A stretch of 32,000 bases of DNA from NCBI GenBank assembly GCA_030606485.1, contig JAUWGH010000009.1, forward strand, positions 1-32,000. Reading direction: 5' to 3'. Under the pieces are notes generated by a model that saw nothing but the letters and a program-made list of their open reading frames with translations, was not told the DNA's origin and did no database searches. A program made the position numbers and the translations under genes. Shown piece by piece: positions 6,819 to 27,519 of the stretch. Source of the DNA: Promethearchaeota archaeon (GTDB lineage Archaea > Asgardarchaeota > Lokiarchaeia > Sigyniarchaeales > SOKP01). Position 1 is the first letter of the stretch. The number at the start of each line of letters is the position of its first letter.

Positions 6819-7664
6819 TTAATATTCTTTTGGTAATTTATTTAATTCTGCTTGGGAAAATACAGGTCCATCTAAACATACAAATTTATTCCCTACGTTA
6901 CATCTTCCGCACTTACCTATCCCACATTTCATTCTCATCTCTAAAGATAATAATATTTGCTCATCGGAGAATTTTAACTCTTTTAAAACATCTATTGTAG
7001 TTTTTATCATAATAGGTGGGCCACAAACTATTGCAACGGCATTTTCTGGGGCTGGTGATACTTCTTTAACGATAGGCGCAACAAAGCCAACTTTTCTCGT
7101 CCAACCTTCTTGTTCCCTATCTATAGTTAAAACGACATTAATATCATCTCTTTTTTCCCATTCTTCTAAAATGTCTCCATACAAAACCTCACCAGACTCT
7201 CGATTTCCATAAATAACGGTTATATCACCATAATTTTTCCTGTTATCTTCGTGTGATGCAAATATAGTTAGGGATCTTAATGTGGAAAATGCAAATCCAC
7301 CTCCAATTATTACTATGTTTTTTCCCTTCATTTCTTCAACGGGCCAGCCATTTCCTAGGGGACCTCTTATTCCGACAATATCTCCTACTTCTAAATTATG
7401 AAGTGCTGTTGTAACCTCGCCTGCTTTTTTTACTGTAAATTTTATCGAACCTATTTCTGTGGGAGATGAAGCTATTCCTATAGGGCATTCTCCTACTCCA
7501 AATACACTTAATTCTGCAAACTGACCAGCAACATAATCGAATTTTTTATAGTCCTCTTCATTATTGAAAACAAATTCAAATGTCTTTATATCATTTACTT
7601 CATTTTCTCTAACGATTGACTTTATTGTGGTCAATACTGGTATATACAGACTTTCTAATTGCAT
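6819..7664 (-). CDS. FAD/NAD(P)-binding [2Fe-2S] subunit (FlxA/AsrB/HydG-like)
   Basis: AGQFAELS, GIRGPLGNG, IGGGFA, CGPPIM and RMKCGIGKCGRC...CLDGPVF. Confidence 0.88.
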   Translation of the reverse strand: MQLESLYIPVLTTIKSIVRENEVNDIKTFEFVFNNEEDYKKFDYVAGQFAELSVFGVGECPIGIASSPTEIGSIKFTVKKAGEVTTALHNLEVGDIVGIRGPLGNGWPVEEMKGKNIVIIGGGFAFSTLRSLTIFASHEDNRKNYGDITVIYGNRESGEVLYGDILEEWEKRDDINVVLTIDREQEGWTRKVGFVAPIVKEVSPAPENAVAIVCGPPIMIKTTIDVLKELKFSDEQILLSLEMRMKCGIGKCGRCNVGNKFVCLDGPVFSQAELNKLPKEY

Positions 7665-21153: not shown

Positions 21154-22092
21154 ATGAAAAAAAAATATCCGGCAATTTTGTCTATTTTAATTACTCTATT
21201 TATATTATGGATATATTTTTTCTCAAATTGGGATCAAATTCTTGTTAATTTAATCATTTTAAATGTCATAATTTTTATATTACGTTTTGTTTTTATTCGT
21301 TTAGCAAATTTAGTTTTAAAACGTCGTATTTACATAGTTGTTATTTCAGCTAGTTTTAATATTGTTTGGATCTTCTTCATATTCTGGTTATTGTTTGTAA
21401 TATCTTCTGATCTTGTAGTTTCTCTTGTTTCTTTTTTAGTAGTTGCAATTTCTTTAACTTTAAAAAATATAATTAACAATATTGCATCTGGTGCAATAAT
21501 ATTGGCAACAGAACCATTTGATGTTGGTGATTTAATCGAAACAAGTGAAGTTCAAGGAGCAGTAAATGAAATTTCATTGAATTATACTAAAATTAAGGAG
21601 TTTGATGGTGTAATTACGTATATACCAAATAAAGATGTTTTAAATAAATCTTTAAAAAAATTTACTTATAGAAAATTAAAGCCAATTGAACAATTAATGG
21701 ATGAAGAAACTCAAACTAAGAAGAAAAAATATAAAAAATATTTGAAGAACATTGATAAGTTATTATTGAGGGAAGAAAAGATAACAAAATATACTAAAAC
21801 TGTAGAAATATTATCTAAAATAGATCCAAATAAACTTGAAAATTTATTATCACCAGTTTTTGACAAATATGAAAAAATTTTTGGGATTAGGCCAGAATAT
21901 ATTATTGAAACCACTGGTTTTCGATGTGTTACAACATTTTATTTAATGGCTAAAAGACCCCTGCTAATTTTGCAATACACAGATAATTTTCTGAAAGAAT
22001 GCATTTTTCAATTATATCACGATGATGTTTTTGATGGGTGGGAATCTTATATACAAGATGAACTTAAATTGAAATCTAAAGGGGGGGGCTAA
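21154..22092 (+). CDS. MscS-family mechanosensitive channel-like protein
   Basis: TM helices, then NNIASGAIILATEPFDVGDLIE...GAVNEISLNYTKIKEFDGVITYIPN (MscS TM3/beta domain). Confidence 0.85.
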   Translation: MKKKYPAILSILITLFILWIYFFSNWDQILVNLIILNVIIFILRFVFIRLANLVLKRRIYIVVISASFNIVWIFFIFWLLFVISSDLVVSLVSFLVVAISLTLKNIINNIASGAIILATEPFDVGDLIETSEVQGAVNEISLNYTKIKEFDGVITYIPNKDVLNKSLKKFTYRKLKPIEQLMDEETQTKKKKYKKYLKNIDKLLLREEKITKYTKTVEILSKIDPNKLENLLSPVFDKYEKIFGIRPEYIIETTGFRCVTTFYLMAKRPLLILQYTDNFLKECIFQLYHDDVFDGWESYIQDELKLKSKGGG

Positions 22093-22099
22093 ATAATTT

Positions 22100-22999
22100 A
22101 TGGCGATTTTCAATTCTGATTTAGAAGCAATTATTTTTATTATAATTATTACTATTTCATTGATTTTTATTGATAAAGTTATTTCTTTTTTTCTGGATAA
22201 AAGTAAAAAGGTATCTATTCAACAAAAAAATGGAATCTATTTTATTATAAGGACCATTTCGGTAATTATAGTAATTTTCTTTGTTCTAGAAGGATTTCCT
22301 TCATTTGAACTTATTGATCCAACTTATAAGGCAATCCTTACAAGTGTCACAAGTACAGCGATAGCATTTGCATCAAGTGAAATTTTTGCTAATTTTATGG
22401 CTGGATTTGTTTTAATCGCGATCGGACCATTTGATATTGGAGATATTGTAAAAATAGATACTGATAAAGGAATAGTAAGATCTATATCTATGACTAAAGT
22501 TATTCTTGAAACTTTTGACAACATATTTATTGTAAAATCAAATAGTGAAGTTATTTCTTCAAAAATTGTCAATTATACAACTAAATTAAGGAATATTAAA
22601 CGATATGTGGATTTTAAAAAGAAAGTTCAAAGCCCCCAAGATAAGGGAGATATTCGTATAAAAATGAAAACAAATATGGATGAAATAGTTGAAAAAAATA
22701 CTAACTTAATGGCTTTTTTTAGATCATTTTCTAGGAGACAAAATCCAGATTTACATACCTATACATTTAGAATGCATTTTCAATATGAAAAATTTCGAAT
22801 AAAATTAGATAAAGTCGAAGGATTATGTACAAAATATAAAAAAAAATTTGGTTTTAAACCAAGATACAATATCATTGGTTTTAGCTCTCACATCATTATT
22901 AAATTTCGAATATTATCTTTAGATCCAAAAAAGATTCTTGAAAATAAACCTAAATTTACCAACGACCTCTATAAAATCATTTTTAGTCATAATATGTAA
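22100..22999 (+). CDS. MscS-family mechanosensitive channel-like protein (tandem paralog)
   Basis: ANFMAGFVLIAIGPFDIGDIVKI...GIVRSISMTKVILETFDNIFIVKSN. Confidence 0.85.
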   Translation: MAIFNSDLEAIIFIIIITISLIFIDKVISFFLDKSKKVSIQQKNGIYFIIRTISVIIVIFFVLEGFPSFELIDPTYKAILTSVTSTAIAFASSEIFANFMAGFVLIAIGPFDIGDIVKIDTDKGIVRSISMTKVILETFDNIFIVKSNSEVISSKIVNYTTKLRNIKRYVDFKKKVQSPQDKGDIRIKMKTNMDEIVEKNTNLMAFFRSFSRRQNPDLHTYTFRMHFQYEKFRIKLDKVEGLCTKYKKKFGFKPRYNIIGFSSHIIIKFRILSLDPKKILENKPKFTNDLYKIIFSHNM

Positions 23000-23089
23000 T
23001 TGCTTATTGTAAAAAACACGCTTTAAAGAAAAATTGAGAGGAACAAAAAATTATTTAAAATTTAATTATACTTCTCTTCATTATTCTAA

Positions 23090-23097
23090 TTATATAA
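23090..23097 (+). promoter_or_regulatory. Archaeal TATA box (TTATATAA) for a probably leaderless GH38 transcript
   Basis: Located 25-32 nt upstream of ATG 23122, the spacing expected for a transcription start at or near that ATG. Confidence 0.5.
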
Positions 23098-23121
23098 TAA
23101 AATTGACTAAGAATTTTCATT

Positions 23122-25929
23122 ATGAATGCTAAAAAAATTGTAATAACTCCTGAAACTCATTGGGACCGTGAAACTTTATATATTTGAGATATAAAGCACG
23201 ATTGGTATCTTCCTTTTCAGGAATATCGAGCAAGGCTTGTTCAGCTTATGGATCGACTATTAGAAATTTTAAGGAAGGATAAAAATTATTCTAATTTTAC
23301 ATTAGATGGACAAACCATCCCAGTTTTAGATTATTTAGAAGTAAAACCCCAAAAGAGAGAAGAAATAGAAAAATATGTAAAAGAAGGGCGATTATCAATA
23401 GGCCCATTCTTCATTCTACCAGATGAGTTTTTAATTAGTGGAGAATCATTGATAAGAAATTTAATGTTAGGGCATAAAATTGCCAGATCTTTCGGAAGAA
23501 TAATGAAAGCAGGATATATTCCAGACCCATTTGGGCACATTGCACAGCTTCCACAAATTTTAAGCGGTTTTGAATTACCATCCTTTTTATTTATGAGAGG
23601 TTTTGGTAATGAATTTGAAGAAAACAACCTTAATATGGAATTTAATTGGCAAGCTCCGGGTAATGCTGCCTCAATTTTAGCGATACATTTAATAATGGGC
23701 TATGGTTCAATTGCCAATATAAATACAAATATATATAACGGAAAATATAAAAACGCTCTAAGACAAATTAGAAGGCGAGTTAAGAATTTAGAAAAGTATA
23801 TTGCTTCTGATGTAGTTTTATTGAATAATGGTTCAGATCATTTGTATGCACAACCTGAAATCTCTACAATTGTGAGTCAATGGAATGAGGAATATGGTAA
23901 AGATAAAGTTTTAGTCCAACAAGATTTCGAATATTATATTAATGAAGTCTTAAAATTCAATCCTAAATTGAACACATATCAAGGAGAATTGAGATGGGGG
24001 AGATATTTTCATTTATTATCAGGTGTTTTTTCAGCCAGAATGTGGATAAAGCAACAAAATACTGAAATTGAATATTTATATGAAAAATACGCAGAACCAT
24101 TCTCTACAATGGCTTGGGCATTGGATAATACTAGTTCTTTTGAATATCCAAAGGATTATTTATGGACAGGATGGAAATGGTTGATAAAAAATCATCCACA
24201 TGATAGTATTTGTGGGTGTAGTATTGATGAAGTCCATCAAGAAATGAAAACAAGATTTCAATGGGCAGATCAAATTGGAAATGAAATTTTAAAGGACTCC
24301 TTTTTAGAAATTGTTAAACAAGTAAATTTGGACAAAACCAGGGATAAAAAAATTGCTTTATTTGTTCTTAATCCTCTCCCATGGCATCGAAAGGATATTA
24401 CATTTTTTGATTTAATAATTCCTATAAAGGAAAAGTCAGAACAATATCCAGATCCTGTGAGATTAATTGATAATAACGGAAAGGAAATTCCGACACAGAA
24501 CTTTTTGATTGAAGAACAACCAAGATACACAGAAGAACATAATAGTACTTATCGTTTCACATTTTTAGCAGATGTCCCGGCATTAGGGTATAAAGTTTAT
24601 TATTTTATTTTGGGAGAAAGTCCAAAAGACCAAAATAATCAAGGAAATTCACTCTTAAAAGCAGAAAAGAACGCTTTAGAAAACAAATATTATAAAATTA
24701 CAATCAATGAGGATGGAGCATTAGATGTATTAGATAAAGAATGTGGTAAAGAATATAAAAATATATGTATCTTCGAAGATGTTGGAGATTGGGGCGATGA
24801 GTATGATTATTCATGGCCAAAAAGTGGCACAGGAGATAGACGAATATTATCAACTAGTTTTAAAGATTGGAAATATAATCTTGTTGTGAAAGGACCTACC
24901 CAAATAACTGGTAAAATTGAATACACTTTCAATCTTCCCGTATCATTATCTAAAGATCGTTCTGAACGAGCCAAGGAATTAATTAACAATCAATTGTCTC
25001 TCTATATTACTCTTTATGAAGATATAAAGAGAATTGATTTCAAGGTAGAATATAATAATGATAGCAAAGATCATCGATTACGAGTTCTCTTTCCCACAGG
25101 CATTAAGAGTAAGGTAGTTCATGCAGATGGACATTTTTATGTAGTTCCAAGAAATGTGGAGTTACCTAATGATGAAAGATGGGCCCAAAAAGCACTTGGA
25201 ACCAATCATGAAAAAGATTTTGTTGCTGTTAATGATAATAGGACATGTATAGCTGTTTTGAACAAGGGTTTACCTGAATATGAGGCAATACAGAATAAAG
25301 ATGGAATAATAACTCTTGCAATAACATTACTAAGGTGTGTTGAGTGGTTATCAAGGACAGATTTAGCTACTCGTGCATCAAATGCAGGTCCCGATTTAAA
25401 AACACCTGAAGCACAGTGTTTAGGAGACCATACTTTTGAATTTTCACTGGTAATCCAAGAAGGTTTAGGTGATTGGTTAAATTCAAGAATTCACATTTAT
25501 GGTAAAGAATTCAATTGTCCCTTAATTACATTTCTTCCTTCAAGTGTAAATTCAATGTATCATGCATTAAATAAAATCCTTTTCTTAGGAATGACTTTTT
25601 TAAAATTGGAATTACAACATAAATCAAAAAATCTTCCTTTAAGCTTTAGCTTTCTAAAAATTGACAACCCAAATGTGCAATTATCTGCCTTAAAAAAGGC
25701 TGAAAATGGAGATTATTTAATAGTTCGACTTATAAATATATCAAACAATACTGAAAAGGCAAAACTTAGTTTTTATAATAATATTAAAAATATTGAAATT
25801 CTAAATCTTTTAGAAGAGCAACCAACTAATAGAATAAAAGCAACAATTTTTCAAATCGACACAAATCAATTGGAAATTATATTAGAACCCCATGTATTAG
25901 CTAATATTAAGGTAATAATTTCAAAATGA
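23122..25929 (+). CDS. GH38 alpha-mannosidase/mannosylglycerate-hydrolase-like enzyme, two exons (23122-23172 + 23203-25929), 925 aa after splicing
   Basis: Exon 1 MNAKKIVITPETHWDRE joined to exon 2 WYLPFQEYRARLVQLMDRLL restores the GH38 THWDREWY metal-binding motif. Nucleophile region GYIPDPFGH, NGSDH and HPHDSICGCS are intact. The tracked ORF (23248) is N-terminally truncated. Confidence 0.9.
23173..23202 (+). other. Candidate 30-nt bulge-helix-bulge (BHB) mRNA intron ACTTTATATATTTGAGATATAAAGCACGAT
   Basis: Central helix CGTG(23167-70)/CACG(23197-200); 3-nt bulges AAA(23171-73) and ATT(23201-03); inner stem CTTTATAT/ATATAAAG (8 bp, 7-nt loop); in-frame TGA at 23185-87. Cutting after the second nucleotide of each bulge gives GAA|TGG. 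Confidence 0.88.
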
Positions 25930-25974: not shown

Positions 25975-27519
25975 ATGTCAAAAAAGAAACCTATGTCTAA
26001 CGTCAATCAGTTTATTTCTTTTGTTGAAACTCCTCCTGAAATATCTAAATTAATGGTAACATTAACTAATCAACCCAAAGATTGTCATATCTTGGATAGT
26101 GGTTGCGGTAAAGGCATTTTTTTAAAGAATTTAATATCATCTGGCTTTACTAACATTGATGGAATTGAAATAGATCCGGGTTTATGTGATTATCTTAGGT
26201 CATCTTTTAAGGACATTGAGTTATATAATGAAGATTTTTTAATTTGGAAAAGTCCTAAAAAGTATAATGTGATTATTGGAAATCCCCCTTATTCACATTA
26301 TAATTCTTTACCAAAGAAAATTCAAAAAGAAGTTTTTTCTTTAACAAAAACTGGAGAATCCGATATTTATTATGCCTTTATTATTAAATCAATTGAATTA
26401 CTCAGGGAAAATGGAGAATTGATCTATATAGTTCCTTATCAATTCTTTTATAATACTCATGCAGAAATTGTAAGGAAAAAAATTTTAGAAAATGGCTATT
26501 TTGAAATTTTAATTGATCTTGACGAAGTTAGACTATTTGAGGGGGAATACCCCGAAACTATTATTTTTAAATTTGTTAAAACAGAAAATAGAAGTTATAA
26601 AAACATTGAAGTATTTCGAATAAAACATAGGAAAGCAAGACCAGAAAATATTTTTAAGAAATTTATTGAATCTCTCAAAGAAAAAAAGGAGAATGAACTT
26701 TTTTTCTACTACACTAAACTAAATTTTGGTAATTATAGAGAAATTTGGTCTTCATATCCTTCAATTGATATTCCAGAATATAAGAAATTAAAAGATCTTG
26801 CCTTTGTTGGAGTTGGATTAGTTTCTGGTTTTGATAAGGCGTTTAGGATTAAAATAAATGAAGATAAATATTATAATGAAAGAGAAAAGAACTTAATTTT
26901 TAATTTTATTAAAGCTATGAATTGTAAAGGTTTTAGGGTCGAAGGTTTTGAGAAATATATTCTGATGGATGAAAAAATAAAAGATGAAATATATCTAAGT
27001 AAAAATTATCCAAATATCTATAAAAAGATGGTTGAATTTAAAGAACAAATGTCCACTAGATATATGCCGAATCATAAAAAATGGTTTCATTGGCAAGCCT
27101 TGAGAAATAAAATGACTTTAGATAAATATATGGAATTGCCAAAAATTTTTGTCCCAACATTGGATCGAAGTAAAGTAAATAGATTTAGTTTTAGTGATAT
27201 GAAAGCTTATCCTTCAGGTGATGTGTTAGTGATTATTCCGTTTAAAATAGATCCCTACTTTTTACTTGGATATTTGAACAGTGTTTTTTTTCGACAGTAT
27301 TATTTATCTCACGGTGCGAAAAGAGGTTATAGAATTGCTTTTACCCAGAGAATTATGTCAAACATAAAAATTCCTGTATTTGAAAATGAAGAATTAAAAA
27401 ATATAGCGAATTTAACTAGAGAAATACTTAATAACAATGATTTTAATAAACGAAAATCTATTGATGATATTATTAATAATGCATTGGAAAAAATGAAGCA
27501 ATTAGACAAAAGTAAATAA
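25975..27519 (+). CDS. N6-adenine DNA methyltransferase, Eco57I/TaqI-like (gamma class), apparently orphan
   Basis: Motif I ILDSGCGKGIFL, motif IV IIGNPPY, GELIYIVP and a C-terminal TaqI-like target-recognition region (YLLGYLNS...KIPV); GAGGAGG SD. Confidence 0.87.
   Translation: MSKKKPMSNVNQFISFVETPPEISKLMVTLTNQPKDCHILDSGCGKGIFLKNLISSGFTNIDGIEIDPGLCDYLRSSFKDIELYNEDFLIWKSPKKYNVIIGNPPYSHYNSLPKKIQKEVFSLTKTGESDIYYAFIIKSIELLRENGELIYIVPYQFFYNTHAEIVRKKILENGYFEILIDLDEVRLFEGEYPETIIFKFVKTENRSYKNIEVFRIKHRKARPENIFKKFIESLKEKKENELFFYYTKLNFGNYREIWSSYPSIDIPEYKKLKDLAFVGVGLVSGFDKAFRIKINEDKYYNEREKNLIFNFIKAMNCKGFRVEGFEKYILMDEKIKDEIYLSKNYPNIYKKMVEFKEQMSTRYMPNHKKWFHWQALRNKMTLDKYMELPKIFVPTLDRSKVNRFSFSDMKAYPSGDVLVIIPFKIDPYFLLGYLNSVFFRQYYLSHGAKRGYRIAFTQRIMSNIKIPVFENEELKNIANLTREILNNNDFNKRKSIDDIINNALEKMKQLDKSK

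Follow-up and report, generated by a model that had tools for sequence, protein, structure and literature searches.

A predicted bulge-helix-bulge mini-intron in the coding sequence of a GH38 α-mannosidase gene of a Promethearchaeota archaeon

The DNA analysed here (the window) is a stretch of 32,000 nt, C7:1-32000 of the genome G000 of a Promethearchaeota archaeon (3.75 Mb, 13 contigs, 29% G+C), which carries a glycoside hydrolase gene of the GH38 family whose reading frame is interrupted close to its 5′ end. Read from the sequence, the frame that opens at ATG 23122 runs into a TGA at 23185-23187, giving an open reading frame (ORF) of 21 aa (23122..23187), whilst a second frame remains open between 23203 and the stop codon at 25927-25929 (908 aa) and contains the GH38 domains PF01074, PF09261, PF07748 and PF17677, all above the Pfam cut-offs. 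Between the two lies an insert of 30 nt (23173-23202) with the same frame on both sides, WYLPFQEY... resuming directly after it, and its removal would give a protein of 17 + 908 = 925 aa; the list of ORFs also offers an 893-aa ORF from ATG 23248. An initial annotation, made from the letters of the window, had proposed that the insert is an intron of the tRNA type, carrying a motif of the bulge-helix-bulge (BHB) type and removed from the mRNA by the tRNA-splicing endonuclease EndA and the ligase RtcB, and had called the host Asgard-like, an assignment borne out by the records of its relatives, which are titled Promethearchaeota. The features of the locus and the predicted anatomy of the intron are as follows.

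23090..23097, + strand: TATA-box-like element TTATATAA, read directly, ~25 nt 5′ of ATG 23122.
23122..23172, + strand: putative exon 1, 17 codons, MNAKKIVITPETHWDRE, source of the His and Asp in the HWDREW motif of GH38.
23162..23166, + strand: 5′ strand of the proposed outer (exon-exon) helix, GGGA 23162-23165 with 23210-23213 and C23166 with G23204.
23167..23170, + strand: exon strand (CGTG) of the predicted central 4-bp helix, partner 23197-23200.
23171..23173, + strand: 5′ bulge AAA, predicted cut between 23172 and 23173.
23173..23202, + strand: predicted intron of 30 nt, with the in-frame TGA at 23185-23187.
23174..23196, + strand: predicted inner hairpin, an 8-bp stem of CTTTATAT (23174-23181) with ATATAAAG (23189-23196) and a 7-nt loop (23182-23188).
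23197..23200, + strand: intron strand (CACG) of the predicted central 4-bp helix, partner 23167-23170.
23201..23203, + strand: 3′ bulge ATT, predicted cut between 23202 and 23203.
23203..25929, + strand: putative exon 2, 908 codons and stop, the rest of the GH38 α-mannosidase (N, middle and C domains).
23204..23213, + strand: 3′ strand of the proposed outer helix, G23204, a 5-nt bulge (23205-23209) and UUCC (23210-23213).

A BHB motif is recognized by two 3-nt bulges on opposite strands with a 4-bp helix between them, and this arrangement is found here: the 30-nt insert with its TGA, the CGTG/CACG helix, the AAA and ATT bulges and the 8-bp stem all lie where the initial annotation had placed them. 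Cutting each bulge behind its second base removes exactly 23173-23202 and leaves ...GAC CGT GAA/TGG TAT..., restoring the frame and the D-R-E-W-Y motif of a 925-aa protein exactly as had been claimed. The predicted junction of the spliced RNA is GACCGTGAA/TGGTATCTT and the predicted junction peptide is ETHWDREWYLPFQEYR. When the insert was shuffled, with its boundaries held fixed by homology, 10 of 1,000,000 shuffles gave all four central pairs together with eight consecutive inner pairs. Of three alleles folded by minimum energy as 102-nt pieces, two, that of the window included, gave the central helix together with the AAA bulge and the hairpin; on its own, thermodynamic folding detects the BHB motif poorly. 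An Rfam search returned nothing relevant, the one sub-threshold riboswitch match lying upstream on the opposite strand.

The contribution of exon 1 to the protein was assessed with the GH38 N-domain profile (270 positions), which an intron-less orthologue from the same genus (94% identical) enters at position 1, exon 2 alone (from 23203) at position 14 and the 893-aa ORF at position 53, without the HWDREW motif; it is this last protein, lacking the metal-binding motif, that gene callers would yield. The GH38 structures PDB 3LVT, 5KBP and 2WYH read ...SHWDREWYLP... unbroken across the junction, matching the spliced HWDRE/WYLPF, and the HxD motif is complete only once exon 1 is joined to exon 2. 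Because of these profile entry positions and the unbroken GH38 structures, exon 1 appears to supply the first strand and the HxD of the GH38 metal site. The His and Asp of exon 1 are presumably metal ligands, an assumption that we take from general knowledge of GH38 structures. The gene of the window is the genome's only orthologue of its subfamily, the other GH38 genes being ~28% identical.

The insert was then compared with the same site in related genomes. Alignment with orthologues from 40 relatives, a check that the initial annotation had suggested, gave 18 of 19 sequences that read ETHWDREWY unbroken across the junction, whilst the remaining one, from another genus and with 55% protein identity, has at precisely this site a 30-nt insert that differs in sequence. 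A pattern search, in which the Asp, Arg and Glu codons were left free and 9-39 nt were allowed before TGGTAY, found a same-site insert in 16 of the 135 species genomes of one Promethearchaeota family (f1), and a reversed-pattern control gave 0 matches. Thirteen more alleles came from sediment metagenomes when public genome and metagenome collections were scanned; the archaeal records with the insert are titled Promethearchaeota or bear submitters' Asgard names, or are sediment metagenomes. The total is 29 distinct 30-nt alleles and one 29-nt allele. Outside family f1 the intron was found in none of ~265 further genomes of the phylum, the five pattern matches there all being dismissed; by our own rough estimate ~1 chance match is expected per 154 genomes. 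The match L026 (G036, 27-nt insert) is a chance match without GH38 similarity, and the four matches outside the family (9, 9, 12 and 36 nt; 400 phylum genomes) show no structure, three of the four being in-frame and stop-free. Three genomes (G105, G121 and G148) hold both an intron-bearing copy and an uninterrupted HWDREWY copy, which could mean that one copy is a paralogue, that the bin contains a second strain or that the state is truly heterozygous-like.

In a gap-free alignment of the 29 distinct 30-nt alleles the proposed BHB structure is well conserved, with 95% of cells paired; sliding the 3′ partners by 1-3 columns lowers this to 31-60%. For the central helix the paired share is 100%, and G-C/G-U and U-A/U-G exchanges occur in its intron strand, which reads CACG, CATG or CGCG across the alleles, all of which pair with the exon CGUG. 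The inner stem is paired in 92% of cells, and six of its eight pairs have changes on both sides that keep the pairing. The covariation score was reached by 0 of 500 shuffles, a statistic that overstates independence as the alleles are phylogenetically related. Bulge lengths are invariant across the 29 alleles, as are the first two bases of the 5′ bulge, the third being A in 28 of 29, and C23166:G23204 is paired in 29/29. Given the 29 alleles and no structure, RNAalifold recovered the hairpin and proposed an exon-exon helix, GGGA (23162-23165):UYCC (23210-23213), behind a 5-nt bulge, its four pairs being formed in all cells but one of the consensus. The initial annotation had cautioned that the outer helix is weak; this holds for the directly adjacent pairs, where C23166:G23204 stands alone; the further GGGA:UYCC helix has support from the 29 alleles. 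In the outer part RNAalifold pairs the exon CCG with UGG in place of the central helix. We prefer the BHB central helix on sequence grounds, because only this pairing would explain both the invariant third base of the CGT codon and the conserved CAYG of the intron.

Constraint of this kind is also apparent at synonymous sites of the flanking exons. The exon end GAC CGT GAA (GACCGTGAA) is invariant in the intron alleles, though the search pattern left its synonymous sites free, and occurs in ~4 of 86 intron-less alleles of the family, in which the Arg codon is AGA, AGG, CGA, CGC, CGG or CGT and the Asp codon is mostly GAT. Likewise, 27 of the 29 intron alleles have CTY as the Leu codon two codons into exon 2 (in 28/29 it ends in C or T), as against 5 of 17 intron-less ones, a bias that would fit the G:Y pair of the outer helix.

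The exons themselves vary as coding sequence. Every allele whose contig covers exon 1 keeps the start codon and the conserved exon 1 peptide, and amongst intron-bearing alleles the codon differences in exon 1 comprise 1422 synonymous and 306 non-synonymous ones. Exon 2 is intact (907-920 aa) wherever the contig reaches the stop, including in alleles ~55% identical in protein, and the loss-of-function changes downstream that the initial annotation had named as a sign of a dead insertion were found in no such allele. Variation is concentrated at third codon positions in both exons and is even in the intron (8/8/9), suggesting that both exons are under protein-level selection and that the insert is without codon-position bias. 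All intron alleles hold an in-frame stop, and these stops vary in kind, number and place. In the 29-nt allele (L068:3500-3600; metagenome contig Ga0180438_10022590) the intron is shorter by a single base, so that its inner stem has a 1-nt bulge; both exons, exon 2 with 907 aa, are intact and lie in different frames, and the predicted cuts still restore the motif. Intact exons in different frames are compatible with excision and not with read-through.

The host encodes the enzymes that such an intron would require. Two EndA paralogues are present in the genome, one keeping the catalytic Tyr/His/Lys and the other without the His; their genes both lie on contig C10, at ~66737-67336 on the + strand and ~670247-670867 on the - strand. 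The catalytic paralogue has its best PDB match in the Aeropyrum pernix catalytic subunit 3P1Z_B, also matches 3AJV_B, 2CV8 and 2ZYZ_B, and is closest to the catalytic subunits of crenarchaeal heterotetramers; the matches of the His-less paralogue are weaker, the best being 5X89 and 1A79, and include the Nanoarchaeum structural subunit 3IEY_B. The host EndA is thus probably a two-subunit (αβ)2 enzyme, and Asgard EndA has been described as (αβ)2 with an L1 loop widening its substrate specificity (PMC5829648). RtcB is encoded by one gene (C6:118950-120257). Aragorn reported only 38 tRNA genes in this genome, whose completeness is rated at 100%, and predicted introns for 24 of the genes, many of these introns lying at non-canonical positions; such a picture is in line with reports of heavily interrupted Asgard tRNA genes, and some tRNAs were probably missed. 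The output of its intron mode is noisy, several of the 38 tRNAs being implausible, and was used only to check the geometric rule, which the clear host tRNA introns obey, with a strong outer helix (anticodon stem, 5-8 bp).

Taken with the covariation across 29 alleles and the intact exons, the presence of EndA and RtcB supports the reading proposed in the initial annotation, and we consider that the 30 nt at 23173-23202 are very probably a BHB (tRNA-type) intron in the GH38 coding sequence, cut by EndA and ligated by RtcB. In the pre-mRNA the last exon bases CGUG would pair with the intron CACG, forming the 4-bp central helix with a 3-nt bulge on each strand, flanked on one side by the 8-bp intron hairpin and on the other by the weak, interrupted exon-exon helix. 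The two-subunit endonuclease, probably (αβ)2, would cut after 23172 and after 23202, and RtcB would join the exons and probably circularise the 30-nt intron. The spliced mRNA would encode the 925-aa enzyme with HWDREWY uninterrupted, the unspliced mRNA the 21-aa peptide only. The fold would be kept by selection because its loss would kill the gene. The intron itself is seen as an old element, polymorphic for presence and absence, of one family of Promethearchaeota (Loki-type Asgard), which may be inherited vertically and by homologous recombination. The variation of exons and intron together with that of the fold is, as far as the alleles tell, the pattern expected for a spliced intron and for none of the rival explanations. 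That splicing gates expression of the GH38 mRNA, as the initial annotation had suggested, is speculation.

Four such rivals were weighed. It is unlikely that the fold is real and serves another kind of processing, in which EndA or another nuclease cuts without productive ligation, as an mRNA-silencing switch, or the insert is removed by an unknown pathway. A conserved fold fits any RNA-level function, the ligation step is itself only inferred, and the 5′ untranslated region (UTR) intron of Haloferax indicates that expression can be influenced by EndA sites within mRNAs (PMC7714728). A pure kill-switch, however, leaves the protein-level selection on exon 1 unexplained, the cut sites restore motif and frame in every allele, that of 29 nt included, and RtcB is present in the genome.

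We think it very unlikely that the insert is a tolerated dead one, either in a pseudogene or ahead of a truncated protein from Met 23248, with the hairpin an inserted palindromic element. The element is indeed polymorphic among close relatives, and gene callers would pick the 893-aa ORF opened by ATG 23248; yet that ORF starts at position 53 of the 270 of the GH38 N-domain profile and lacks HWDREW. A dead insertion accounts neither for the retention of the exon 1 start codon and peptide, with mostly synonymous change, nor for an exon 2 intact at ~55% protein identity, nor for covariation that keeps a fold which a dead insert would not need. In a whole-genome search the insert sequence was single-copy in the 3.75 Mb, hence it does not belong to a repeat family.

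Translational recoding, in which the ribosome reads through the stop or hops the 30 nt in the manner of T4 gene 60, is most improbable. A stable hairpin that directly follows the final codon of exon 1, with a stop behind it, resembles a bypass signal only superficially: the take-off and landing codons mismatch (GAA vs GAT, GAC or GAG in most alleles), the stops differ from allele to allele, read-through would add 10 residues inside the metal-binding motif, the 29-nt allele would additionally require a frameshift, and bypassing would need neither the conserved CGUG:CAYG pairing nor the two 3-nt bulges. An assembly or sequencing artefact, finally, has a negligible chance, as it is refuted by 16 species genomes, many metagenome contigs and four runs of one study in which independent contigs of another strain (97.5% identical over 22702-24200) cross the insert site gap-free; these contigs behave as DNA, confirming the insert in DNA and remaining silent on splicing. 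Two of the runs (X1 and X3, 23152-23230) also contain a contig of another organism, lower in abundance, with a different GH38 exon 1 (its loose end reading ...VKANCIIIVP) and a nearly identical intron region, at 3-4 differences from the window, including 23186 G>A, which turns the TGA into TAA.

Against a spliced BHB intron, several points should be set. Cleavage, ligation and a circular intron are inferred here and not seen at the RNA or peptide level; a search of sequencing runs returned no RNA run with this sequence, and next to none of the sequence words of the locus were found in three cold-seep metatranscriptomes of another study. The minimum-energy fold of 76 nt contains no BHB and is not more stable than shuffles (z = -0.7), and the relatedness of the alleles lessens the weight of the covariation shuffles. 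The directly adjacent outer helix consists of a single pair, and the columns of its extension are nearly invariant, their support coming from synonymous-site bias and not from covariation; with an outer helix weak beside the bulge and an extension of this kind, the motif would be of a relaxed rather than the strict hBHBh′ form. Lastly, the TATA-like element at 23090-23097, the sequence of which is not conserved in the G001 orthologue, suggests a leaderless or very-short-leader mRNA starting at exon 1. If this TATA box is real, the GH38 mRNA would be leaderless or nearly so and the intron would start only ~51 nt from the 5′ end; it is conceivable that, with transcription and translation coupled and an intron 51 nt into a possibly leaderless mRNA, ribosome and endonuclease would race.

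The BHB intron, if such it is, has a patchy presence, which varies between alleles that are 94% identical and even within one genus. On a tree of 44 GH38 sequences, the sampling of which favoured intron-bearing alleles, intron presence needs at least seven changes on well-supported branches, and five close sister pairs differ in it. In the genus of the window (window, L002, L003 and L083; compared over 23203-25929) there are two intron-bearing and two intron-less alleles, 91-96% identical, which are mosaics in which 200-nt blocks switch nearest relative. Overall, the window gene is most similar to an intron-less allele; within the 200 nt that follow the intron, by contrast, it has 5 differences from the other intron-bearing allele and 19 from the intron-less one. 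Recombination thus appears to be frequent in this GH38 gene, and the mosaic pattern argues that homologous recombination between close relatives exchanges the intron or removes it; simple recombination of this sort would fit as its means of mobility. Four intron-less alleles that read GACCGTGAA/TGGTAY (G015:C22:20257, G082:C37:6368, G145:C21:9719 and G147:C63:6361) may be recent precise intron losses.

The initial annotation had also supposed that more micro-introns may be hidden in the genome, and two were found, in a MoxR-type AAA+ ATPase gene and in DnaG. A homology-free scan of the genome for BHB motifs whose excision fuses ORFs gave, at loose thresholds, the same counts as frame-shifted controls (e.g. 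7438 vs 7387-7642) and, with the strictest filter, 8 matches vs 4-6 in the controls, those in the GH38 and MoxR genes being convincing. We draw no claim as to the genome's total number of mRNA introns from a scan limited in this way by noise. The MoxR gene (C1, + strand, exon 1 end near 76173) has a 31-nt BHB insert in the Walker A motif, of the design CTGG / AAA / 10-bp stem / CCAG / AGC, and its excision gives LLVKGEPG/TGKTLLAHAI. The insert in DnaG (C2:142589-142621, + strand) is 32 nt long, lies between GAIFGQ and TEGLL, and by eye reads GGGC / AAA / GATA...TATC / GCCU / AAA, with an inner stem of 4 bp. There are thus, to judge from their design, at least two more candidate introns of this type in the genome beyond that in GH38. 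A wider proposal is that the family has a general spliceosome-independent mRNA splicing in which many genes, those for GH38, MoxR and DnaG in this genome among them, carry ~30-nt BHB mini-introns in catalytic motifs, which close relatives gain, lose and swap through recombination. Placed close to the 5′ end of mRNAs that may be leaderless, such introns would make protein output dependent on EndA and RtcB, and the system would be a functional precursor of obligatory mRNA splicing in the nearest lineage to eukaryotes. We regard this proposal as tentative, somewhat more doubtful than probable.

The closest known system is the intron of the crenarchaeal cbf5 pre-mRNA (Watanabe, 2002; Yoshinari, 2006; Yokobori, 2009, PMC2738675), likewise a short EndA-type intron in a coding sequence beside a catalytic motif, with a relaxed BHB, frame-restoring cuts between the second and third bulge residues, dependence on a hetero-oligomeric endonuclease and patchy gain and loss (PMC2738675). 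The cbf5 intron differs in sitting in cbf5, at the catalytic Asp codon, whereas the one described here lies in a GH38 mannosidase gene of the Asgard phylum Promethearchaeota, varies in presence within one genus and is one of several predicted in its genome, with splicing here deduced from sequence; the two would be of the same kind and not of the same intron family. In the genome of the window cbf5 is one uninterrupted 326-aa frame. According to a 2020 study cbf5 is the only coding-sequence case of an archaeal mRNA intron, to which that study adds the Haloferax 5′ UTR intron (PMC7714728). The latter, in Haloferax volcanii HVO_1309, is also an EndA substrate in an mRNA, its excised piece having been found as a circle and its cleavage confirmed in vitro, but at 46 nt it lies in an untranslated leader and interrupts no reading frame (PMC7714728). 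Full-text literature searches brought up no description of introns of this sort in protein genes of Asgard archaea, and a 2026 preprint on Asgard tRNA introns does not take up mRNA introns, its text lacking the words 'mRNA' and 'cbf5'. New here would be the gene (GH38), the phylum (Asgard) and a remarkably polymorphic intron, the predicted mechanism being the same as for cbf5.

Archaeal tRNA introns (hBHBh′, at the canonical 37/38 and at non-canonical positions) share the 4-bp helix, the opposite 3-nt bulges and the cut positions, and the same enzymes are expected to act on them. Their outer helix is strong, in contrast to the 1 bp and interrupted 4 bp proposed for GH38, where stability would come from the 8-bp inner hairpin and where the exons encode protein. 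The splicing of HAC1/XBP1 in eukaryotes (Ire1 cleavage, with RtcB ligation in animals) likewise takes a short intron out of a coding mRNA without the spliceosome: the cuts fall in paired stem-loops, a tRNA ligase does the joining, and the product of the unspliced message is different, short or inactive; there, unlike here, the nuclease is Ire1 and not the tRNA-splicing endonuclease, and stress-regulated splicing is a feature of HAC1/XBP1.

If the GH38 intron is spliced as predicted, mRNA splicing of the tRNA type would be no crenarchaeal oddity and would be in use in the prokaryotes most closely related to eukaryotes. It would account for 'truncated' or 'pseudogene' calls in the annotation of Asgard genomes, and would offer both a system for following intron gain and loss between alleles 92-96% identical and short, defined substrates for testing how specific Asgard EndA is.

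Directly upstream of the GH38 gene lie two tandem genes for MscS-type mechanosensitive channels (312 and 299 aa; 21154-22999), and downstream of it lies an Eco57I/N6-methylase-like gene (514 aa; 25975-27519).

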